A DNA stretch of 64,000 nt from Bernardetia sp. (GCF_020630935.1 NZ_JAHDIG010000005.1:1-64000); one strand, 5' to 3'. Shown: positions 3,398 through 30,006, counted from the stretch's first letter. Notes: generated by a model from the letters alone, not told the origin. Made by a program: numbers and translations.

Positions 3398-4660
3398 ATG
3401 CTGAAAAAAATAATATACGCTTTACTTTCATTTATAATTGCTTGTACGCCAAAAATAAATCAACAAGAAGCCACTATATTAGAAAATAAGACAACTACTA
3501 TGCACGAAAATCAGATAGATAGTTTGGCAAATCGCTATCTTGACGTAGGGCGTTTTAGTGGGACAATAGTAGTGTCTGAAAACGGAGCAGTTGTGTTTAA
3601 TAAAAGCTATGGGTTGGCAGACTATTCCAACGTAAAAAACTTTACGGACAGCACAGCTTTCAAAATAGGACATCTTTCAGAGCTATTTACAAAAGCCATT
3701 GTTGAAGATTTGATAAGCAAAAACAAAATAAAAGCTGAGGAACAAATAAAAAATTATATTCCTCAAATAGAAAAGGAATTTACAGTAGAAGAATTATTAA
3801 ATCATACCTCTGGTTTACAAACTATTTCACAAATTCAAGAAGCCAACGAAAATATGCCATATTCTACCTTAGAATATGTTGCTTTGTCAAATTCAGAAAA
3901 TCAAAACGTAGCATCAGAACTAGATTACAATATTTTAGGACTTCTGATTGAAAAAGTTACTGAAAAGAGTTTTGATGAAGTGTTGGAAGATTATGCTCAA
4001 AAGTGGAATTTAGAAAGCACTTATTTTCATAAAACAGATACCACACACCTTGCTATTGGTTATTTATTTTTCAATTATGGTAATCAAGGGTTAAAACTTT
4101 CCCCTGCTCCAAAATACCAAAACAGTACAGCATTTAGCAGTAGAGGAATAAAATCGACAGCATTAGATATTTTGAAATTTACAAAGCAGTTTCCAAATAA
4201 AAATTTTGATACAGAAGGATATTTGATGAATGATGGCTTTAGCTATTCGCTCAAAAAAGATGATTCAAAAGATAGAACTGTCCTTATTTTGAGCAACAGA
4301 AAGCACCCAGTAGCTAGAGAAATGTCGGAAAGCATAGAGAAAATACTAGACGAAGAAGAGTATGAACTTCCTTTGCCTCGCAGGGAAATTGCTATTGATG
4401 TAAATTTGTTGAAAGAATATGAAGGGACGTACTCTTTAAATGAAAATATGAGCCTTACTTTTGTAGCAGAAAAAGATAGTTTGTTTTTTTTGATGGGAGA
4501 AAATAAAATCCGACTTATTCCACAATCTGAAAATCAATTTTTTATGCTAGAGAGTGATGCCTCTACTCGTTTTGAGAGAGATGAAAATGGAAAAGTTACA
4601 AAAGCTATTTTGATGGACGGTTTCTTAGAAGGAAATACCATTATGAAAGTTATGGAATAG
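3398..4660 (+). CDS. Beta-lactamase-fold (serine hydrolase family) lipoprotein, possibly non-catalytic
   Basis: Signal peptide with lipobox (IIAC). The region FKIGHLSELFTKA aligns with the F.IGSxSK.FT motif of class C beta-lactamase-related proteins, but the SxxK Ser and Lys appear to be replaced. Confidence 0.65.
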   Translation: MLKKIIYALLSFIIACTPKINQQEATILENKTTTMHENQIDSLANRYLDVGRFSGTIVVSENGAVVFNKSYGLADYSNVKNFTDSTAFKIGHLSELFTKAIVEDLISKNKIKAEEQIKNYIPQIEKEFTVEELLNHTSGLQTISQIQEANENMPYSTLEYVALSNSENQNVASELDYNILGLLIEKVTEKSFDEVLEDYAQKWNLESTYFHKTDTTHLAIGYLFFNYGNQGLKLSPAPKYQNSTAFSSRGIKSTALDILKFTKQFPNKNFDTEGYLMNDGFSYSLKKDDSKDRTVLILSNRKHPVAREMSESIEKILDEEEYELPLPRREIAIDVNLLKEYEGTYSLNENMSLTFVAEKDSLFFLMGENKIRLIPQSENQFFMLESDASTRFERDENGKVTKAILMDGFLEGNTIMKVME

Positions 4661-5504
4661 ATTTTTTCTGTTGTTCAAAGGCTTCTAACTCTGCTTTGGC
4701 TTCTTTGCTAATCAAGATAAGCAAGAAGCTAAGAGGTAAGATACACAAACCAATTCCTCCAAATATGGCTATTACTGTTGATTGGAAAGTACCAAAAGTA
4801 CGTGAGAAAAAGAAAAATAAGCTACCTGCAAAAATAATACTCATCATTATTACTGCTATCCATCTTCCCCAAACAGGTTTTAGCCAAAGGAATACAGCAA
4901 ACATGTGTAACAGCAATATTACGCCAAATACCCAGTTTAAACCTAAAATATCTCCTAGATTATCTAAATCATCAAAAATCTGTAATAGAAGTGGCAATAC
5001 GCAACTGAAAATTGTAATAGCATAGATACGGTGAAGAAACCAAAAGTAAGGAGAGATATTTGTTGATGAATTATCATCTTTGAATAGGTCAGAATCCAGT
5101 ATTTTGTTATTTGTAGATTTTTCTTTTTGATTCGGAAATCCTATTCTTGAATAAGAAATGAGAAATAAAAAGATAACTATTCCTAAAGCAATGCCTGATA
5201 GTATAGAAACATAATCTTCAATGGTAAAGCCCACAATACATATAAGTAAAATCATAATTGAGGTAGCATAACCTAAAAACCTTGACAAAATTGACTGTGT
5301 AAATAGCCAAAATATAGACGAGGAAAAACAAGATAGTAAACAAAGAGGAGCAATTACGAATAGTGCTGTCTTTATATTCCACTCTAAAAAATCTTCCAAT
5401 TGAATTGGATATTGAGAATAAACAGAGTAAATAGAACTAATAAATAACACAGTCAGTCCCAAATACAAAAGCCCAATAGCTTTTCGAATAGATATATTTT
5501 TCAT
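4650..5504 (-). CDS. Polytopic membrane protein, function unknown
   Basis: Six or more hydrophobic helices. I recognise no family. Confidence 0.45.
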   Translation of the reverse strand: MKNISIRKAIGLLYLGLTVLFISSIYSVYSQYPIQLEDFLEWNIKTALFVIAPLCLLSCFSSSIFWLFTQSILSRFLGYATSIMILLICIVGFTIEDYVSILSGIALGIVIFLFLISYSRIGFPNQKEKSTNNKILDSDLFKDDNSSTNISPYFWFLHRIYAITIFSCVLPLLLQIFDDLDNLGDILGLNWVFGVILLLHMFAVFLWLKPVWGRWIAVIMMSIIFAGSLFFFFSRTFGTFQSTVIAIFGGIGLCILPLSFLLILISKEAKAELEAFEQQKKSIP

Positions 5505-5548
5505 AGTTCATTTTATTTCACAATTCTAGCTCCATTGCCTTCACCTTT

Positions 5549-5600
5549 TCCCTGTTCTGTGACTCACAGAGCAGCAAATATGTACTCTAAAAAAAGGTTT
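5549..5600. repeat. Partial copy (one end plus internal palindrome) of the MITE-like element found at 16731-16863, in reverse orientation. It is flanked by a ~21-bp direct repeat (5525-5548 / 5609-5632) that duplicates the thrB 3' end.
   Basis: TTTTCCCTGTTCTGTGACTCACAGAGCAGCAAATAT is the reverse complement of 16931-16966. The flanking repeat is TTCTAGCTCCATTGCCTTCAC. Confidence 0.45.
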
Positions 5601-6525
5601 AAATTATTCTAGCTCCATTGCCTTCACAGACAGGATTGATATAGGTTTGAATAGGAATATCTACTTCTTGATAAACTTTTTCTAAGGCATTTTTAATTAT
5701 TTCAGCTTGTTCTTTACCTTTTGCCATTGCGAAAATAGAAGGACCAGACCCAGAAATTCCAAAAGCAAGTGCGTCGTTTTCTAGTGCTGCTTGTTTCATT
5801 TCTTTAAATTTAGGAATCAGCAGACTTCGCATCGGCTCAATAACCAAATCTTGTAATGATTCTGAAAATAAATCATAATTTTTTTCATACAAACTGACAA
5901 CAAACGTTCCCATCAGTCCCATTTGCTTGCTAAAAGTAGCTACTGAAAGCGTAGATTTTAAGATTTTTCTTGAATCAGAAGTATTAAGTTTTACGTGTGG
6001 ATAGAGTGTAACAGCATATAAATCTTCCAAAACTGGAAGCTGTAAAATATCGCTTTGTTTGTTTCCTTTGGAGAGAATAATTCCACCCAAAAGAGAAGGG
6101 GCAACATTATCTACGTGTGCACTTCCACACGCCACACGTTCGCCTTCGGCTGCAAAAGCAACCAATTCTTTTGTAGAATATGGTTTTCCGATAAGTTCAT
6201 TATATCCAAAAGCTGCTACTGCACTGCTGGCACTGCTAGAACCCAAACCACTACCTGAAGAGAAGCCTTTTTTCAAGACAATATCAACACCCATAAATTC
6301 ATTGTGGGCTTCCTGCATCTTTCGAATCACGACAGACGAACAGTTTTTATCAACTTCTTTGGGAAGATTTTCTCCATTTATGATTTCTAAAATTTTGTTT
6401 TCGGTAGTGCCATTAGGAGTAAGTGTAATTTCATCACCCATATTTCCCAAAGAAAGCCCTAGAATATCAAAACCGACATTGAAGTTGGCAATAGTGGCTG
6501 GTGCGAAGGCTGTTATTTTTTTCAT
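5599..6525 (-). CDS. thrB: Homoserine kinase
   Basis: GHMP kinase motif GSGLGSSSASSAVAAF. Probable start at MKKITAFAPATIANFNVGFD (6525); the listed ORF extends upstream to 6606. Confidence 0.85.
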   Translation of the reverse strand: MKKITAFAPATIANFNVGFDILGLSLGNMGDEITLTPNGTTENKILEIINGENLPKEVDKNCSSVVIRKMQEAHNEFMGVDIVLKKGFSSGSGLGSSSASSAVAAFGYNELIGKPYSTKELVAFAAEGERVACGSAHVDNVAPSLLGGIILSKGNKQSDILQLPVLEDLYAVTLYPHVKLNTSDSRKILKSTLSVATFSKQMGLMGTFVVSLYEKNYDLFSESLQDLVIEPMRSLLIPKFKEMKQAALENDALAFGISGSGPSIFAMAKGKEQAEIIKNALEKVYQEVDIPIQTYINPVCEGNGARII

Positions 6526-6625: not shown

Positions 6626-9118
6626 TTAGTTATTCATAATAAACATCAAATCAGCAAAAACGCCACTTGCTGTTACTGCTGCTCCAGCTCCTGCGCCTTT
6701 GATAACCAATGGTTCATCTACATAACGATTTGTGTTGATGGCAACTACATTGTCTTTTCCCTCCAAGTTATAAAATGGACTATCCGAAGGAATTTCTTGC
6801 AGAGCAACCGATAAATCTCCTTTTTCCATCTTAGCAACTACTTTGAGTTTATTTCCTTTTTCGTTTGCATTTTGATAAAGCGTTTTGAAATGATTTTCGT
6901 GCTTTTTGAGGTTTTCAAAGAGTTCTTCTACCGATTTAGAATTGGTACATTCATCTGGCAAGAAGCTATTGAACGTAATATCTGACATTTCTCTGTTTAG
7001 TCCAGATTCTCTTGAAAGAATAAGGATTTTTCGCATTACATCCAGTCCAGAAAGGTCTATGAGTGGATTGGGTTCGGTATAACCTTCTTCTTTTGCTTGC
7101 AAGACAACATCAGTAAACTGATTTTCTGCATTATAATTGTTGAAAATAAAGTTCAAACTCCCAGAAATAACGGCTTCTATTTTGTTTATCTTGTCGCCAC
7201 TAATTCGAAGGTCATAAATTGTTTTCAAGATAGGCAAGGCAGCTCCTACCGAAGTTTCGTATTTGAAATAGATATTTCTTTCTTTGGCGAGTTTGTTGAG
7301 TTTCAAATACTTTGAGTATTCACTACTACACGCAATTTTATTACAAGTAACTACCGAAATGCTATTTTTGAGTAAAAACTCATATCCTTCACTTACAATA
7401 TCAGAAGCTGTGTTATCAATAAAAACACTATTGCGAAGGTTCAATTCTTTGATTTTTTCAAAATATTCAGTTAATGAAGAATATGTTTTGACATTCTTGT
7501 TTTTTACCTTTTTCTTGAAATTCAAAACCTCTTCTTTGGTTAGTTCTTCCACACCTTCAAAAGTTTCTGATGCTTCTTTTAAAAGCATTTTTTGACTGTT
7601 AGCAATACCTATTATTTTAAGGTTGATTTGATATTCTTCGATGAGTTTTTGCTTTTGAGCAAAGAGAATATTTATAAATTCTGTTCCTACATTGCCAATT
7701 CCTGCAATAAAAACGTGTACATTTTTGACAGCCGAAGCAAAGAACTTTTCATGAATTACATTGAGAGCCTTATCTTCGTCTTTTTTATCGATAACAATAG
7801 AAATATTTCGCTCCGATGCTCCCTGTGCTACTGCTGTTACGTTGATGCCATTTTCTCCAATTGCTCCAAAAACTTTTCCAGCCAAGCCAATCGCATTTTT
7901 CATGTTATCGCCTACAAGTGCTACAATGCACTGATTTTCAGTAGCCTTTACTTCATTCATCCATCCTTTTTCAATCTCTTTTGCAAAAGCTGAATTGAGT
8001 GAATCCTTGGCAGTTTGTAGTTCAGATTGTTTGATTCCTATTCCGATACTTTGCTCAGAACAGCTTTGTGTAATCAAGATAATATTGATATTTGCCTCTT
8101 CTAAAATCTGAAATACTCGTCTTGCGCTGCCCTTCTGTTTAGCAAGTCCGATGCCTGAAACTGTCAAGATAGCAATATCGTCTAAGGAACAAATACCTTG
8201 AATTTTGTTGTCTGTAACTTTGTTTTCATTACTGATAAATGTCCCTTCTTGCTCTGGAAAAAATGTGTTTTTAAGATAAAGAGGAATATTTTTGTTCATG
8301 ACAGGCAAAATAGAAGGTGGATATAACACCTTTGCTCCAAAATATGCCATTTCGAAGGCTTCTTCATAACTCAACTTCTGTAATGAATGTGTTGCCTGTA
8401 CTTTTCTTGGGTTGGCAGTTTGCATTCCATTGACATCACTCCAAATTTCTAAACTGCTTGCATCAACAGCATTTGCATAAATAGAAGCTGAAAAGTCTGA
8501 ACCTCCACGCCCAAGCGTAACTGTTTCACCGTTCTGATTATGTGCAACAAAACCTGCTGCAATATAGCTTTTACTTTTATCAACTTTAGTAAGAATATTT
8601 GTTGTAGTTTTATCTAAATTTAGATGAGCATTTAGATAGTCTTTAGATTCGAAAGTGTTGGTCGAAATTAATTTTCTACTTTCTAGTAAATCTACTTTTA
8701 TTGGATTTTTTGTATTGACAGAGAGATATTTCTGAACGATAATGGAAGAGAGTTGCTCACCGAAACTTAAAATAGTAGCTCGTGTTCGGTCAGAGAGTTC
8801 TCCAAGTGTTCCAACGCTTTCACAGATGGCTTCTAGTTGATTGCATTTTTGTTGAACTTCTACAAAAAGGTCTATCTGATGCGATTCTGAAACAAGTTGT
8901 TTGATAAAATCAAAATGAAAACTTCTAAATTCTTCCAACAAAACAGTATGTTTTCCTTCTAAAGAAAGACTGGCAATTTGTTCTAGTTTATTGGTGATTC
9001 CAGAAAAAGCAGAAACTACGACAATAAAATTTTCAGTTTTTGAAACAAGAATAGCTGCAATTCTTTCAAGATTGGAAGTTGAGGAAACGCTTGTTCCTCC
9101 GAATTTTAAGACGAGCAT
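6626..9118 (-). CDS. thrA: Bifunctional aspartokinase / homoserine dehydrogenase
   Basis: N-terminal MLVLKFGGTSV aspartokinase signature and ACT domains. The C-terminal homoserine dehydrogenase domain has an NAD-binding GIGNVG motif. It sits directly upstream of thrB. Confidence 0.95.
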   Translation of the reverse strand: MLVLKFGGTSVSSTSNLERIAAILVSKTENFIVVVSAFSGITNKLEQIASLSLEGKHTVLLEEFRSFHFDFIKQLVSESHQIDLFVEVQQKCNQLEAICESVGTLGELSDRTRATILSFGEQLSSIIVQKYLSVNTKNPIKVDLLESRKLISTNTFESKDYLNAHLNLDKTTTNILTKVDKSKSYIAAGFVAHNQNGETVTLGRGGSDFSASIYANAVDASSLEIWSDVNGMQTANPRKVQATHSLQKLSYEEAFEMAYFGAKVLYPPSILPVMNKNIPLYLKNTFFPEQEGTFISNENKVTDNKIQGICSLDDIAILTVSGIGLAKQKGSARRVFQILEEANINIILITQSCSEQSIGIGIKQSELQTAKDSLNSAFAKEIEKGWMNEVKATENQCIVALVGDNMKNAIGLAGKVFGAIGENGINVTAVAQGASERNISIVIDKKDEDKALNVIHEKFFASAVKNVHVFIAGIGNVGTEFINILFAQKQKLIEEYQINLKIIGIANSQKMLLKEASETFEGVEELTKEEVLNFKKKVKNKNVKTYSSLTEYFEKIKELNLRNSVFIDNTASDIVSEGYEFLLKNSISVVTCNKIACSSEYSKYLKLNKLAKERNIYFKYETSVGAALPILKTIYDLRISGDKINKIEAVISGSLNFIFNNYNAENQFTDVVLQAKEEGYTEPNPLIDLSGLDVMRKILILSRESGLNREMSDITFNSFLPDECTNSKSVEELFENLKKHENHFKTLYQNANEKGNKLKVVAKMEKGDLSVALQEIPSDSPFYNLEGKDNVVAINTNRYVDEPLVIKGAGAGAAVTASGVFADLMFIMNN

Positions 9119-15032: not shown

Positions 15033-16364
15033 TTAGTTGAAATCTTCTTGAATAACGTCTGCGTGATCTACTTTCTTACGCTCCGACATAGGAACAAATG
15101 CTCTTTCGTTTTCTCCAGTATAAATCTGACGAGGACGACCGATAGGGTGTTTTTGTTCCAACATTTCTTTCCACTGTGCAATCCAACCTGGCAAACGTCC
15201 CATTGCAAACATTACTGTAAACATATCTGTTGGCAAGTTCATTGCACGGTAGATAATTCCAGAATAGAAATCTACGTTAGGGTAAAGTTTTCTTTCGATA
15301 AAGAACTCATCTTCTAAAGCTACTTGTTCAAGCTGTTTAGCAATACCTAATAATGGGTCTTCGATACCTAGTTTGCCTAAAACTTCATCACACGCCTTCT
15401 TCAAAATCTTCGCTCTTGGGTCGAAATTTTTATAAACACGGTGTCCGAATCCCATTAAGCGCATCTCACGATTTTTTACCTTTTTGATAAAGTCTTCTAA
15501 TGCCATTCCACTCTCATGGATTTCTTCTAACATCTCAATTACTTGCTGATTTGCACCACCATGAAGAGGACCGCTCAAGGCATTCGTAGCAGAAGCAATA
15601 GAAGCATAAATATTAGCCAATGAAGAACCAACAATACGAACTGTTGAAGTAGAACAGTTTTGTTCGTGGTCTGCATGAAGAATCAAAATTTTGTTTAAAG
15701 CACTTACCATTACAGGGTCAACTTCATATTGCTCTGTTGGTAAAGAGAACATCATTTTGAGGAAACGTGCGCCATAGTTAAGGCTGTTGTCAGGGTAATT
15801 TACTGGATGACCCATTTCATTTTTATATGACCAAGCTGCTATTGTAGGAACTTTTGCAATAAGACGGACAATAGACATATATACTTCTTCTGGAGAACGG
15901 TTTTGCTCCATAGATTCAGGATAAAATGTGCTGAGTACCGAAATCAAAGAAGAAAGTACAACCATAGGATGAGAAGCTGTAGGGAAGCCATCAAATAGCT
16001 TACGCATGTCTTCGTGAATGAGTGTATGGTTGGTAATATCGTTTTGGAATTTAGTGAGAGAGGCTTGGTCTGGAAGCTCTCCAAAGATAATAAGATAAGC
16101 CACCTCTAAGAAAGATGCTTTTTCAGCAAGCTCTTCTATGTTGTAGCCACGATAACGCAAAATTCCTTTTTCACCATTCAAAAATGTGATGGCGCTTTCT
16201 GTCGAACCCGTATTTTTAAAGCCGGGGTCAAGAGTAATAAGTCCTGTTGTGGCACGTAATGAGCCAATGTCGATGCCTACTTCTCCTTCTGTTCCTTCTA
16301 CAAGTGGTAATTCATAGCTTTTGCCTTCATAAGTGATAGTGGCAGTCTTTCCATTTTGTGACAT
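15033..16364 (-). CDS. gltA: Citrate synthase
   Basis: GFGHRVYKNFDPRA and other citrate synthase signatures. Probable start at MSQNGKTATITYEGKSYELP (16364); the listed ORF runs to 16436. Confidence 0.95.
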   Translation of the reverse strand: MSQNGKTATITYEGKSYELPLVEGTEGEVGIDIGSLRATTGLITLDPGFKNTGSTESAITFLNGEKGILRYRGYNIEELAEKASFLEVAYLIIFGELPDQASLTKFQNDITNHTLIHEDMRKLFDGFPTASHPMVVLSSLISVLSTFYPESMEQNRSPEEVYMSIVRLIAKVPTIAAWSYKNEMGHPVNYPDNSLNYGARFLKMMFSLPTEQYEVDPVMVSALNKILILHADHEQNCSTSTVRIVGSSLANIYASIASATNALSGPLHGGANQQVIEMLEEIHESGMALEDFIKKVKNREMRLMGFGHRVYKNFDPRAKILKKACDEVLGKLGIEDPLLGIAKQLEQVALEDEFFIERKLYPNVDFYSGIIYRAMNLPTDMFTVMFAMGRLPGWIAQWKEMLEQKHPIGRPRQIYTGENERAFVPMSERKKVDHADVIQEDFN

Positions 16365-16730
16365 ACGTATATTAGGGTTTGTACTGAAAGTTGTGTTCTG
16401 TAAAAATATTTCTTTATTTGATAAAGTATAAAGCAAAAAGAGTCTTAAAAGTTAGGATACAAATGACTTTAATTTTGCAGTTCTGTCAATAAGTCCACAA
16501 TTTAACCAAAAAAAAAGCATAAAAACAAGTTTGTTTCCCTTTGCTTCTAATAATTTGAAAGAATTAAATCAGAAAAGAAAATACTATTGAGAAATAAATA
16601 TACAATGAAATGAAACACATTTCTAGTCTTTTGATGTAAAAATTATAATAATAAATGTTATCAAGGTTAAATTTAGTAAAGTTTCTTTCTTCATAGTAAG
16701 CCAAAAGCCATGGAGAAATAGATACGATTT

Positions 16731-16863
16731 TAGAGTACTGGACATGAACAGATATTTGCTGTTCTGTGAGCCACAGAACAGGGAAAAAATATCGTTCGTT
16801 GGTGTTTTAGCGTAGCGACACCAACAACTTTTTATCTCATATCCAGTACTCTAATACGATTTG
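16731..16863. mobile_element. MITE-like miniature element (~133 bp) with perfect 12-bp terminal inverted repeats TAGAGTACTGGA / TCCAGTACTCTA and a flanking 9-bp direct repeat ATACGATTT
   Basis: The terminal inverted repeats and flanking duplication are read directly. Internal palindromes CTGTTCTGTG/CACAGAACAG and GTTGGTGT/ACACCAAC. Confidence 0.55.
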
Positions 16864-16925
16864 ATTTTTAATAAATTACTGACAATCATATCTGTAAAAA
16901 CGTGATAACCATTATAGAGTGCTAG

Positions 16926-17047
16926 ACATTAATAAATATTTGCTGCTCTGTGAGTCACAGAACAGGGGAAAAATACGGTTAGTTGGTGTTTTAGTATAGC
17001 GACACCAACCACTTTTTATCTTGTATCCAGTACTCTAAATCTTATTA
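16926..17047. mobile_element. Second, more diverged copy of the same MITE-like element (no clear target-site duplication)
   Basis: About 80% identical to 16731-16863, in the same orientation and 62 bp downstream. Right terminal inverted repeat TCCAGTACTCTA intact, left one degenerate (TAGAGTGCTAGA). Confidence 0.5.
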
Positions 17048-17171
17048 TACCTTACTAAAAATCTAAATTATATTTAGAAAAAAGTCGTAATAATACAGCG
17101 TCTTTTTTTGGATTTGAGTTTCAAAACCACTACTTTTGCATTCTATTTGTAATTTAAACCATGTATATCTC

Positions 17172-17483
17172 ATGTACGCAATCGTAGAAATAGCCGGACA
17201 ACAGTTCAAGGTAGAAAAAGACCGTTATATCTATACACACCGTCTTCAAGGAAATGAAGGTGATGAAGTAACTTTTGATAAAGTTCTTTTGGTAGATAAC
17301 GACGGCACTGTTAGTATTGGCGAGCCTCAAGTTGCTGGGGCTTCAGTGAGTGGCGAAGTGCTTGCTCAAGTAAAAGGCGACAAAGTAATCGTTTTCAAGA
17401 AAAAACGTCGTAAAGGCTACAAAAAGAAAAACGGACACCGTCAGCAATTCACTAAAGTCTTGATTAAAGACATTCTAATTTAG
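17172..17483 (+). CDS. rplU: 50S ribosomal protein L21
   Basis: MYAIVEIAGQQFKVEKD... is the canonical L21 N-terminus. Confidence 0.9.
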   Translation: MYAIVEIAGQQFKVEKDRYIYTHRLQGNEGDEVTFDKVLLVDNDGTVSIGEPQVAGASVSGEVLAQVKGDKVIVFKKKRRKGYKKKNGHRQQFTKVLIKDILI

Positions 17484-26596: not shown

Positions 26597-27166
26597 ATGT
26601 CAGATTATACATTTTCAAAAGTATTTAAGAATATAAATTTTTCAGAGCAAGAATTTCCCACAGGAGAGTATGAAGAATGTAGTTTTCAAAACTGTATTTT
26701 TAGAAATAGTAATTTATCACATTCTAAATTTATCAACTGCGATTTTGAAAGTTGCGATTTATCTAGCATAAAATTAGGTGAGACTTCATTGCAAGAAATT
26801 ACTATCAAAAATTCTAAGTTGCTTGGGGTGGTATTTTCAGACTGTACTAATTTTTTGCTATCTATACACTTTATTCATTGCTTACTTGACTTTTCATCTT
26901 TCTATCAGCTAAATCTTAAAGATTTTAAATTCAAGAATTGTAGCCTTAAAGATGTCGATTTTACAGAAGCAAATCTTAAAAAAGTAGCTTTTGAAGACTG
27001 CAATTTGATAGGAGCTACTTTTGAGAATACCGTTTTAGAAAGTGCAGATTTTCGAAGTGCAACAAATTATTCTATCAATCCTGCAAAAAATAAAATCAAA
27101 AAAGCAAAATTTTCTAGTCAAGAAGTAAAAGGACTCTTGGATAGTTATGATATTTTGATTGAATGA
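26597..27166 (+). CDS. Pentapeptide-repeat protein (Qnr/MfpA-like fold)
   Basis: Consecutive A(D/N)LXX-type pentapeptides throughout (CSFQNCIFRNSNLSHSKFINCDFESCDLSSIKL...). Confidence 0.8.
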   Translation: MSDYTFSKVFKNINFSEQEFPTGEYEECSFQNCIFRNSNLSHSKFINCDFESCDLSSIKLGETSLQEITIKNSKLLGVVFSDCTNFLLSIHFIHCLLDFSSFYQLNLKDFKFKNCSLKDVDFTEANLKKVAFEDCNLIGATFENTVLESADFRSATNYSINPAKNKIKKAKFSSQEVKGLLDSYDILIE

Positions 27167-27522
27167 AAAAACACAGTTCAAATTGTAAGTTAACGTGAAC
27201 TCGGAATTACAAATAAGCTAATTACTTGTTTCAAGTAGATTAGATATAGAACTTGTTTAAGAATGGTTTTTCTAGCGCAAGATTCCATCTTGTGTTTACC
27301 GTTTTGTCAGCATATGCTGACGAAAAAGTACGTCCAAGCAGAATGCTTGAACGAGAAACAATAATTAAAATTTACTCTATACCTCATTAAAGGTACTTTT
27401 TTTCATTCTTAAACAACTTCATAGTTTTTGGTCTGCTCTAATGAGACTGACCTAAAATGTAAATCCTAAGTTCACGTTGGGTTAGATGAAAAGGTTCTAA
27501 AAGAATTAGAGACTAAATGATT

Positions 27523-30006
27523 TTACTCTTTACTTTCTGTATTTTCAGGCAATTTCAAGCTATCCAAAACGCTGCTGAGTTGTGTGCCTTTCAGAAGATT
27601 TGCAAACACGTCTGCCACAGAGTTTCCTCCCAAAATTGCGAGTGGAGCCATCGAATCTGCCATTTTTTGAGCAAGTGCTTTATCAGAAAACGATTGCAAG
27701 GCTGCAATAAGGTCTGGAGAAACAGCTTTTGCTTTGGCTACTACTGCCTCTACTTCTGTTTGTTCTTCCAAAATGTACTGCTCTAGCTGTTTTTGAGCTT
27801 TTTCTATCTCAACGGCATCTTTAGCTCTTTGTCTAGTAAGTTCGTCTTCATTGATTTGATTGAGCGTTTTTTGTTCGTCTAAATTAGCTTGTAAATGACG
27901 CTCCTTACTCATTATTTCACTTTCAATTTTAGATAAAGTAACTTCTAAGAGTTTTTTGACTTCTTCTTTTTGAAGTTCGTAGATTTTCTGCTTAGTTTCA
28001 GATTGTGTAGCTGCGATTTGTCTTGTAATGGCTTCGCTTTCTTGTGTAAATTCTAATTTTCGTTTTTCAGCATTTATGCGAAGTGTTTGCATAACTGTAT
28101 CTTGCTGTGAAGAAATAAGTAGATTTTCAATATTTGCATCACCCAAACTTATATCCAAAATCTCAACGTCGTAGATACGCATTCCATTTTCTTCAAAAAG
28201 TCGTCCTGTGCGTTTCCCTGTTTTCTTGTCAGACTCTCCTAAAATAGCATCTCTCAAAATCGTAATTCCATTGGCATAAAATTCCATAATTGGATATCTT
28301 CTGACAGTATTTCGGATATACGAACGCATGTGGTCTGTTAAAAATTTGACATAGTTTTCCACATTAAACCACTTTTCAGAATCTCCTTCAAAATTGACAC
28401 GATACGAAAGATGTATTCTAACTTGCGTGTAATCTGCCGATTCTGCCATTATCTCATCCGAAACTTTATTATACAACACTCTCAAATAAACCGTTTTGAT
28501 AGAATTTGCTGTTGTTTTTGGTGTTCCTGTTGAAAGCTCTATACCTTCTAATTCTTCATCGTATTCCAAAAGATACGATTGAGGACCTTCAATGACTTTT
28601 CGTTTTCCTGTCTTGCTAACCACTAAAACAGCATATCCTGTCCAAGGCGCAATCGTAACAGCTCCTTCAAATTTTGTATCTAATGTCACCATACGAGGTG
28701 GCGTAAACGAACTATCACGATTAAATTCGTCGCTTACTACTTCGTCTGCAATCTTAGCTTTTTTTCGTAATTGTTGTTGTGGAGCTTCTGGTGCTTGATT
28801 TTGTTCTTGTAATTCAAAATCAGTAACGAAATTATCGTTTTTAGCAATACTTTGCATCGCCATATTGTACTCCATTGCTTCATTGTTATTTGGAAACCAA
28901 AGTGATGTTTGCTTTTTTGTCAAAACTCTTCGTACCAAAACAAATTCTCTTGGGTCTGGCAAAAACATCGCTGCACCTTTTTTGAGAGCGACTGTTCCTG
29001 TTTTACGATTGAGGTAATAACGTCCTTCTCCTGCTGGAATAGCAATGGCATAATGACGTTCTTTTTTTCCATAACGAATAATGGCGTGTTCTGGGCGAGG
29101 ATAATAAATCATTTGGTCTTTTCCAGTAATGAAAAGCTCGTCGCCTTCTTTATACTCGTTTTTTCCTTCTTTATAAGGAGCAATGACTTTTATATAGAGT
29201 CCACTCATTTCATTGAGTTCGATGGCTTTAAATTTTCGTTGTCCATTTTTCTCAATAAACTCTTCTGTTGGTTCTGGAAAGACTACTTTTGGACCTTGAA
29301 TATAGCGTTTGTTTCCATCTTCGTTGAGCAAAATACAGTATTCCAAACGTTCTAAAGTTACAGCCTCTCGCACATATTCATCTGTTTCGTAACCGTATGA
29401 GTCTGTTCTGACCACTTCAATTCCTGTGGGTGGAATATAAAACGAAACAGCATCGCCACGAATAATCAGAAGCTGACCCATTGTAAGACTTTCAGCTACT
29501 TTTTTGAGTTCTTTTACTTCTTTATCCTCTCCTTCTTTTGTTTTGATGACGGATTTACCCCAATTTTCTCGTGCTTGTTGTTCATCATACACACGAACCA
29601 ATAAATATTGATTCGAACTCAAATTATGTCCTCTGACTACTCTTGCCATTTGTCCAGCCCAAAGTGCAAAAGAAATAGGACCTGAAATATTTACTTTTCT
29701 TCCTACATTGAGTTCGGCTAAATTGTTACTTGTTCCTACTTTTGGTGGGTTATTATCTTTTGAAGGGTTTTTCAAAACTATATACCATCCTTCTGGTGCA
29801 ATGACAAAAGAACGCATCGAATCTTCTAAAGTACATTTTTCGAAACGTTTGGTTTCGTCGTCGAACATCACAGGACGGTCAGTATTGGCAAGGCTAGTTT
29901 TGTAAGGACCTACATAAACATTGATATTTCCTTTAGTTTGGTCAGAAATAAATGCGTACTCATTAGGAGCTAAAACTAAATCTCTTTCTCGGTTACTATC
30001 AGACAT
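27523..30006 (-). CDS. Major vault protein (MVP) homolog
   Basis: N-terminus PNEYAFISDQTKGNINVYVGPYKTSL...RPVMFDDE parallels the first MVP repeat of eukaryotic MVP ([36 protein letters not shown]). About 8 tandem ~55-aa repeats, a shoulder region, a long C-terminal coiled-coil cap-helix, and a C-terminal ...PLAILGGNSVADVFANLL region resembling the MVP cap ring. Confidence 0.8.
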   Translation of the reverse strand: MSDSNRERDLVLAPNEYAFISDQTKGNINVYVGPYKTSLANTDRPVMFDDETKRFEKCTLEDSMRSFVIAPEGWYIVLKNPSKDNNPPKVGTSNNLAELNVGRKVNISGPISFALWAGQMARVVRGHNLSSNQYLLVRVYDEQQARENWGKSVIKTKEGEDKEVKELKKVAESLTMGQLLIIRGDAVSFYIPPTGIEVVRTDSYGYETDEYVREAVTLERLEYCILLNEDGNKRYIQGPKVVFPEPTEEFIEKNGQRKFKAIELNEMSGLYIKVIAPYKEGKNEYKEGDELFITGKDQMIYYPRPEHAIIRYGKKERHYAIAIPAGEGRYYLNRKTGTVALKKGAAMFLPDPREFVLVRRVLTKKQTSLWFPNNNEAMEYNMAMQSIAKNDNFVTDFELQEQNQAPEAPQQQLRKKAKIADEVVSDEFNRDSSFTPPRMVTLDTKFEGAVTIAPWTGYAVLVVSKTGKRKVIEGPQSYLLEYDEELEGIELSTGTPKTTANSIKTVYLRVLYNKVSDEIMAESADYTQVRIHLSYRVNFEGDSEKWFNVENYVKFLTDHMRSYIRNTVRRYPIMEFYANGITILRDAILGESDKKTGKRTGRLFEENGMRIYDVEILDISLGDANIENLLISSQQDTVMQTLRINAEKRKLEFTQESEAITRQIAATQSETKQKIYELQKEEVKKLLEVTLSKIESEIMSKERHLQANLDEQKTLNQINEDELTRQRAKDAVEIEKAQKQLEQYILEEQTEVEAVVAKAKAVSPDLIAALQSFSDKALAQKMADSMAPLAILGGNSVADVFANLLKGTQLSSVLDSLKLPENTESKE

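Follow-up and report, generated by a model that had tools for sequence, protein, structure and literature searches.

The stretch of Bernardetia sp. DNA analysed here (64,000 nucleotides, referred to below as the window) contains a divergent spacer of 699 bp between the citrate synthase gene (gltA) and rplU, and two copies of a short repeated element lie within this spacer (Table 1). Copy 1, which matches the family profile at nhmmer E=1.5e-36, has terminal inverted repeats (TIRs) that are perfect over 12 nt and that can be extended to 17 matches in 18 (18-nt arms, 94% complementary). It is flanked by a direct repeat of exactly 9 bp, with a mismatch at the tenth base. Both the perfect 12-bp TIRs and the presence of ATACGATTT on each side agree with the original prediction, which also gave the correct start of copy 1; however, the end that it proposed (16863) takes in the right-hand duplication, and the element itself stops at 16853. 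The internal palindromes had likewise been recognised, except that the loop of hairpin 1 is the 3-nt AGC and not AG. The A-run GGGAAAAA directly 3' of hairpin 1 is a recurrent end point of the half-copies and internal duplications described below, and a T-run lies directly 3' of hairpin 2.

Copy 2, in the same orientation and 61 bp further downstream, gives an ungapped alignment with copy 1 at 87% identity. It had been placed at 16926-17047 and 62 bp away, about 10 nt off its actual position, but its orientation and its more degenerate state were correctly described: two mismatches have degraded its left TIR (TAGAGTGCTAGA), and no target duplication is recognisable in its flanks (TAACCATTA vs. 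AATCTTATT). Across the family, the end consensus is a TIR of 12-14 bp, TAGAGTACTGGACA, the pair being written TAGAGTACTGGACA ... TGTCCAGTACTCTA. The 9-mer AGTACTGGA occurs three times in the window (0.33 expected), always inside element copies, to which the hairpin 1 and hairpin 2 patterns are also confined (0-0.14 expected). A profile built from 24 full copies found nothing in the 64 kb besides copies 1 and 2 and a fragment next to thrB.

Table 1. Coordinates of the element copies, neighbouring genes and related repeats in the window and at other loci
Feature	Location	Strand	Details
Second 22-bp direct repeat copy	5523-5544	-	now non-coding; runs into the ancestral thrB end and the downstream gene start
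Left-half fragment	5546-5589	-	44 nt; nhmmer E=1.8e-8
Foreign filler AATTTAAACCTTTTTT (element orientation)	5590-5605	-	16 nt, between thrB stop and fragment; absent from the empty site
22-bp direct repeat copy	5606-5627	-	now the thrB 3' end (...CEGNGARII*)
Citrate synthase gene (gltA)	15033-16436	-	
Copy 1 left target duplication ATACGATTT	16722-16730		identical to the right one
Copy 1	16731-16853	+	123 bp, 40% GC, non-coding; both TIRs, hairpins 1 and 2
Copy 1 left TIR TAGAGTACTGGA	16731-16742	+	
Hairpin 1 CTGTTCTGTG-AGC-CACAGAACAG	16759-16781	+	10-bp stem, 3-nt loop
Hairpin 2 GTTGGTGT-TTTAGCGTAGCG-ACACCAAC	16798-16825	+	12 nt between arms; followed by AACTTTTTA
Copy 1 right TIR TCCAGTACTCTA	16842-16853	+	
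Copy 1 right target duplication ATACGATTT	16854-16862		
Copy 2	16915-17037	+	123 bp; nhmmer E=5e-32
rplU	from 17163	+	coding
Flank direct repeat	L007		82 bp
Flank direct repeat	L012		36-41 bp
Flank direct repeat	L030		30-34 bp
Flank direct repeat	L015		24 bp
Flank direct repeat	L040		at least 72 bp
Flank direct repeat	L009		27 bp; copy without its first 5 nt
~75-nt repeat family	L003 7465-7536		
~75-nt repeat family	L022 7164-7235		
~75-nt repeat family	L041 1459-1530, 4833-4904		
~75-nt repeat family	L019 51-123		
~75-nt repeat family	L010 1293-1364		
GAAGTTGTTTAAGAAT family with hairpin 2	L093 2938-3069		Bernardetia plasmids (L093 and L094: NZ_CP147018, NZ_CP147016)
GAAGTTGTTTAAGAAT family with hairpin 2	L094 4826-4971		Bernardetia plasmids (as above)
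GAAGTTGTTTAAGAAT family with hairpin 2	L008 ~7524-7596		MAG
GAAGTTGTTTAAGAAT family with hairpin 2	L026 ~7909-7970		MAG

An exact-pattern scan with hairpin 1 over 185,579 species, each represented by one genome, gave 49 matches in 41 stretches, all of which belong to a single genome, the MAG CAKZOK01 of an uncultured member of the Cytophagales. Many of these matches lie at contig ends, as would be expected of a repeat that breaks assemblies. The MAG shares 91% identity with the window over the DNA of rplU and approximately 75% over other genes, and thus represents a different species. The closest named L21 homologues, from Hugenholtzia and Thermoflexibacter (78-80% identity), together with this MAG and matches in Bernardetia plasmids, place the window in the Cytophagales, near the Bernardetiaceae. 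A BLAST search with the element against 307 kb of MAG loci located it at 60 places in the 41 stretches, comprising at least 28 two-ended copies and approximately 30 partial ones. In the MAG the element is 121 bp long (123 bp in the window) and its TIRs are perfect over 14 nt in the consensus; the mean pairwise identity of 97.6% among the copies suggests a recent burst in this genome. Copy 1 of the window is 89.5% and copy 2 83.6% identical to them. The MAG copies occur in both orientations and next to unrelated genes, and 59 of the 60 places fall outside open reading frames (ORFs) of at least 120 aa, which occupy 75% of the bases. The element itself contains no ORF; no open stretch exceeds 40 codons, and stop codons interrupt five of the six frames, the exception being one on the minus strand that is open beyond its first codon.

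Target-site duplications were evaluated in 30 two-ended copies, including the two in the window, of which 29 were informative. Perfect 9-bp duplications flank 20 of the 29 (19 of 27 in the MAG alone), and every one has a different sequence; two further copies have a duplication with one mismatch and one has a duplication of 8 bp, while seven, among them copy 2 of the window, have none. Non-cognate pairs of flanks gave a perfect 9-bp match in only 1 of 812 cases. A 10-mer test found no perfect case, and the duplication is thus exactly 9 bp long. The insertion sites are AT-rich, with the symmetric consensus T|A-N7-T|A. At one locus (L022), a copy is nested within another small element and has its own 9-bp duplication.

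These data bear directly on whether the unit is mobile, as the original prediction held, or confined to the loci in which it was noticed, with no target duplications elsewhere. The sequence search found it at about 60 dispersed places in the related MAG, 19 of 27 copies there having a perfect duplication. The idea of a repeat that is specific to this locus or was duplicated there in tandem could draw on the distance of 61 bp between two copies of the same orientation and on the occurrence of the sequence at only three places in the 64-kb window. However, copies 1 and 2 differ by 13% and have unrelated flanks, which argues for separate insertions; the dispersed MAG copies lie at unrelated loci with locus-specific duplications, and relatives have empty sites. 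A non-mobile repeat therefore has next to no probability. Within the spacer, copy 1, with its intact ends and target duplication, appears to be a fairly recent insertion, and copy 2 is presumably an older one.

Comparison with relatives places the copies at sites that are polymorphic between genomes. The gene order ftsZ / citrate synthase / rplU / rpmA is kept in three of them (L048, L050, and L053), in which the spacer between the citrate synthase gene and rplU is approximately 400 bp long and contains no copy of the element (compare 699 bp in the window). Conversely, one MAG copy corresponds to an orthologous spacer of the window that is without the element. For copies 1 and 2 and this MAG copy, only presence or absence can be scored, because the intergenic DNA is too diverged (~75%). 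A base-level empty site is available for the 83-bp insertion at thrB, in a relative (L046) whose thrB protein is 95% identical: here, the sequence runs directly from ...CCTGTTTGTGAAGGCAACGGAGCTAGAATTTTGAAATAA into the downstream gene, at the point where the window has 83 extra bases. It should also be mentioned that the motif GTTTGCAyTCTATTTGTAAwTTAAAC, just upstream of rplU (17130-17160 in the window), is conserved in L030, L048, L050, and L053, whereas the remainder of the rplU spacer is not conserved among the relatives. This block is probably the rplU promoter or its 5' leader. Both copies of the element lie upstream of it, as it starts only at ~17135.

The element body was predicted to be highly structured, and folding bears this out: the single strand has a z-score of -8.2 as DNA and RNA alike, with an RNA fold of -52 kcal/mol. 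Such a stable fold, together with the T-run after hairpin 2 and the position of the copies upstream of the rplU-rpmA operon, could be taken to indicate a structured RNA gene or a cis-regulatory RNA family, for example an rplU leader or terminator, rather than selfish DNA. However, the stability of the fold is a trivial consequence of inverted repeats and palindromes. No Rfam family matched at its gathering score in the window, and only chance-level matches appeared at E<=10 within 16300-17400; a simple scan revealed no terminator-like sites, and promoter-like sites were not above the level in shuffled sequences. Moreover, copies lie in either orientation beside unrelated genes, syntenic relatives do without the element upstream of rplU, the conserved promoter-proximal sequence is downstream of both copies, and the target duplications mark insertion events. 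An RNA function as the basis of the family is thus highly improbable.

The features described above are those of a MITE: the element is non-coding and falls within the usual size range of about 50-1000 bp, has TIRs and a locus-specific target-site duplication of fixed length, and is present in dispersed, polymorphic copies. Insertion duplicates exactly 9 bp of AT-rich target, and the copies are intergenic. Indeed, given dispersed non-coding copies with 9-bp duplications at sites that are empty in relatives, the family very probably represents a MITE whose transposase acts in trans and cuts with a 9-bp stagger, the half-copy at thrB being a product of rearrangement. A transposase encoded elsewhere would bind both TIRs, excise or copy the element, and join it to a target cut with a 9-bp stagger, the repair of which would create the flanking duplication. 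It is the TIRs and the fixed 9-bp duplication, and only these, that point to mobilisation in trans and to the type of enzyme. Several DDE families typically duplicate 9 bp, including IS4/IS10-like elements, the IS903 group of IS5, IS1, IS256, and ISLre2, and the end sequence of the element did not distinguish between them.

One other assignment of the ends deserves consideration. All copies have TA at both termini, T|A also marks the two cut positions of the target consensus, and the L022 element described below ends in CAGTACTGGACAT; it could therefore be proposed that the element is an IS630/Tc1-mariner-type MITE that targets TA, in which the terminal TA...TA would be the duplicated target and the element proper would end in GAGTACTGGACA. 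The latter would resemble the Tc1 end CAGTGCTGGCCA. IS630/Tc1 elements duplicate TA only, whereas 20 of 29 copies here have an additional, locus-specific 9-bp duplication outside the TA. This makes an IS630/Tc1-type origin extremely improbable, and the 9-bp-stagger transposase is retained as the preferred mobilising enzyme.

A parental element did not emerge from the sequences searched. The window, the 307 kb of MAG loci, viral contigs, and plasmids yielded neither a transposase nor a full-length IS whose ends match, and there are no multi-copy ORFs among the MAG loci. Outside the known copies, the only TIR matches with up to two mismatches in the window and the loci are those of one element at L022. 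This non-coding element of ~195 bp (4624-4978) ends in (T)CAGTACTGGACAT, has 12 nt in common with the MITE ends, and hosts a MITE copy with a tandem hairpin 1 unit and the duplication AGTAATTGT. Its related ends suggest that a single enzyme may serve two or more non-autonomous families. A 15-mer of the TIR gave 30 single, chance-like matches and no element among viral contigs, where a loose TIR pair (L078) proved to be ordinary coding sequence, and a BLAST search with the MITE and the L022 element against plasmids and phages returned hairpin 2 matches in Bernardetia plasmids only. An ORF at L034, the only one with 16-nt inverted repeats on its flanks, was considered as a parent IS and rejected, having no Pfam domain and repeats that belong to another family. 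A literature search for the end sequence gave primer-type chance matches only.

The third occurrence in the window, at the 3' end of thrB, has a different structure. As predicted, it is a half-element in reverse orientation bounded by direct repeats of the 3' end of thrB; however, its extent differs from that first proposed (5549-5600), and the repeat comprises 22 bp rather than 21 and does not lie at 5525-48 / 5609-32 (see Table 1). Read in the orientation of thrB, the order in the window is GTGAAGGCAATGGAGCTAGAAT (22 nt), AATTTAAACCTTTTTT (16 nt), the partial MITE (44 nt), G, a second GTGAAGGCAATGGAGCTAGAAT, and then TGTGAAATAA with the beginning of the downstream gene. The fragment itself reads TAGAGTAC^ATATTTG...hairpin 1...GGGAAAA, that is, positions 1-8 of the left repeat joined across a 13-nt internal deletion to sequence that includes hairpin 1, with all sequence from hairpin 2 onwards missing; over 32 nt its identity to copy 2 is 100%. 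The bounding repeat, ATTCTAGCTCCATTGCCTTCAC, is present as a single copy in the empty site of L046. Its second copy in the window keeps the ancestral thrB end ...ARIVK* (compare ...ARILK in L046). Since 16 nt of foreign sequence separate the TIR from the 22-bp duplication, this half-element does not represent a plain transposition product. It resembles a patch templated by another MITE locus, with 16 nt of the flank of that locus copied along. A partial MITE, the foreign flank and the 22-bp target duplication would together make up the product of a secondary rearrangement.

Such half-copies are not limited to the window. In the MAG, approximately 12 left-half copies consist of positions 1-57/58 only and end with GGGAAAA(A) just 3' of hairpin 1, and several of them are flanked, like the one at thrB, by duplications of 22-82 bp of flanking sequence, which at the MAG loci of Table 1 are direct repeats of the left flank. 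At L007, a full element follows the second copy of the flank, which makes this locus a plain tandem duplication with its right break at hairpin 1; it is the only intermediate-like structure that was seen. At least seven copies (L005, L014, L022, L027, L029, L034, and L036) contain internal duplications, 19-39 nt in length, in the region of hairpin 1. Their junctions vary over five positions, from GGGAAAA to GGGAAAAACAC, and this variation fits polymerase stalling better than site-specific cleavage. The base preceding the left flank copy is usually A, which gives 1-3 nt of microhomology with the A-run.

Template switching at hairpin 1 is the most likely origin of the half-copies in the model that accommodates these structures. 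Its perfect 10-bp stem would stall replication or repair synthesis, the nascent strand would switch template at the A-run 3' of the hairpin, and slippage between the 9-bp duplications of the downstream full copy could afterwards remove that copy. It should be noted that the duplication at thrB does not abut the TIR. Aberrant one-ended transposition or a hairpin-specific nuclease are possible alternatives that would give similar products. In a more far-reaching version, which must be considered rather unlikely, the 57-nt left half (TIR and hairpin 1, ending GGGAAAA) would be a unit inserted by a distinct non-canonical route, either through strand transfer at one end only, with strand-displacement synthesis next and a final joining step where hairpin 1 is broken, or through nicking by a hairpin-specific HUH enzyme. 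Were this true, target duplications of variable and considerable length (22-82 bp) would result, and at thrB the end of the gene would have stayed in frame; moreover, hairpins 1 and 2 would be functional modules of several small mobile families of Bernardetiaceae-like Cytophagales, and not passive palindromes.

The behaviour of the hairpins also raises the question of whether the entire family could be a REP/REPIN-type repeat that a single-copy Y1 (HUH) transposase, either a RAYT or an IS200/IS605-like enzyme, disperses through single-stranded DNA. Hairpins 1 and 2 would then be the recognised structures, and cleavage would take place at the precise point where the half-copies end, 7-8 nt beyond hairpin 1 on its 3' side. 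Inverted doublets resembling hairpin 1 in a relative and in metagenome contigs (L042 and L054), the nearly common point after hairpin 1 at which the half-copies and a 39-nt tandem unit end, and the independence of hairpin 2 in other repeat families would all be consistent with such a mechanism. However, HUH/Y1 transposition, as in IS200/IS605 elements and REPINs, yields neither TIRs nor a fixed target duplication, whereas full copies have both, and the presence of TIRs and duplications equally sets the element apart from IS200/IS605-derived palindrome-associated elements (PATEs). Neither GTAG nor CGTC tags the hairpin ends, the junctions 3' of hairpin 1 are spread rather than fixed, and no Y1 transposase ORF was noticed. 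A REPIN-type origin is accordingly very unlikely, and a MITE whose half-copies most likely arose at a stalling hairpin remains the preferred interpretation.

Among known systems, Correia/NEMIS in Neisseria, RUP in S. pneumoniae, and Nezha in cyanobacteria are MITEs that duplicate TA and are linked to IS630-like or unknown transposases. They resemble the family described here in size (100-160 bp), TIRs, stable fold, intergenic location and copy number (tens to hundreds), but differ in the duplication, which is 9 bp here. MITEAba12 of Acinetobacter baumannii, which is 113 bp long with 16-bp TIRs and a 9-bp duplication and is identical to its parent IS only in the TIRs, has nearly the same architecture, being short and non-coding with short TIRs, 9-bp duplications and many copies (PMC6382973). 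The ends of the two elements are nonetheless unrelated (GGCTTTGTTGCACAAA vs. TAGAGTACTGGACA), the host phylum is another one, and MITEAba12 is 78% AT, whereas the element here is 60% AT and has two strong internal hairpins. In addition, the parent ISAba12 is co-resident and transposition has been observed (PMC6382973), whereas movement is deduced here from comparison. BrickBuilt of Porphyromonas gingivalis is likewise a MITE-like, intergenic and modular element of the Bacteroidota, in which an internal module expands in tandem and partial copies ('leader only' and 'tail only') occur (PMC4596501). However, its ends (GAGACCTTTGCA) match ISPg elements of the IS5 family, and the expanding module is a 23-nt minisatellite of up to ~23 units (PMC4596501), compared with a hairpin module of 25-39 nt and at most three units here; half-copies with long flank duplications are a further difference from BrickBuilt. 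REPINs and REP sequences are also short, structured, intergenic palindromes in tens of copies (PMC3116915, PMC3337134, PMC3733652), and inverted doublets like hairpin 1 in relatives add to the likeness. REPINs, however, have no IS-type TIRs and no fixed target duplication and are accompanied by a single-copy Y1 transposase (PMC3116915, PMC3337134, PMC3733652), and REP sequences carry GTAG or CGTC tags (PMC3733652), whereas the element here combines IS-type TIRs and 9-bp duplications with untagged hairpin ends.

The family is thus a new member of a well-known kind of bacterial repeat, and the current understanding of transposition is unchanged by it. Nonetheless, few MITE families have been described in this phylum and order, to which a well-documented one is now added; indeed, a 2024 review of prokaryotic MITEs makes no mention of Bacteroidota, Cytophaga or Flavobacterium (PMC10969869). 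The ends TAGAGTACTGGACA, the 9-bp stagger and the T|A-N7-T|A target provide a precise handle for tracing the transposase, and knowledge of a family that breaks MAG assemblies helps genome finishing. The sole unusual aspect of the family is the half-copies with long flank duplications, which, including the 83-bp insertion in the last codons of thrB, form a natural record of hairpin-associated rearrangement.

The hairpins, in turn, extend beyond this family. Hairpin 2 (TTGGTGTTTTAGCGNAGCGACACCAA) recurs in a separate MAG repeat of ~75 nt, and chimeras of the MITE and this repeat, joined at hairpin 2, are present at L028 (5092-5211) and L005. The ~75-nt sequence, AATGCCGTTGTTGGTGTTTTAGCGAAGCGACACCAACAACCAAATAACTTATCATACTTTTTACAACACCAC, represents a third repeat family, built around hairpin 2 and without any Rfam match. 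Hairpin 2 also lies inside a different MITE-like family, with ends GAAsTTGTTTAAGAAT, in two Bernardetia plasmids and at MAG loci. In this family, four loci contain it in nearly unchanged form (TTGTTGGTGTTTTAGCGTAGCGACACCAACAA), and one hairpin module is therefore common to at least three small repeat families across genera. The loop of hairpin 2 contains the motif GCGNAGC, which forms a very stable DNA mini-hairpin. The window has its own second MITE-like element, unrelated to the one described above, of 172 bp (27249-27420), located between ORFs 26597-27166 and 27523-30006. It has 16-nt TIRs (GAACTTGTTTAAGAAT / GAAGTTGTTTAAGAAT) and two internal palindromes, but not hairpin 2, and its ends recur in several MAG loci and Bernardetia plasmids.

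Palindromes resembling hairpin 1 are also dispersed more widely. A metagenome scan with the hairpin 1 pattern yielded no more copies of the MITE; it identified similar palindromes in nine low-GC contigs (L054 and L055-L062), among which no Rfam family was matched. Palindromes of the form CTGkTCTGTG-NNN-CACAGAmCAG also occur in a 3.8-Mb relative (L042, 5010-5100). Some of them are REPIN-like inverted doublets between TTACGCA and TGCGTAA (L042; L054, ~270-380), and those of L055 and L062 have TTCTTAACTCAAT in front of them. Finally, clusters of short palindromic repeats with CGTCGTTTAGG / CCTAAACGACGG surround a 384-aa ORF at L034 (6420-6500 and 7740-7820), and these may represent a CGTC-tagged REP-like family.
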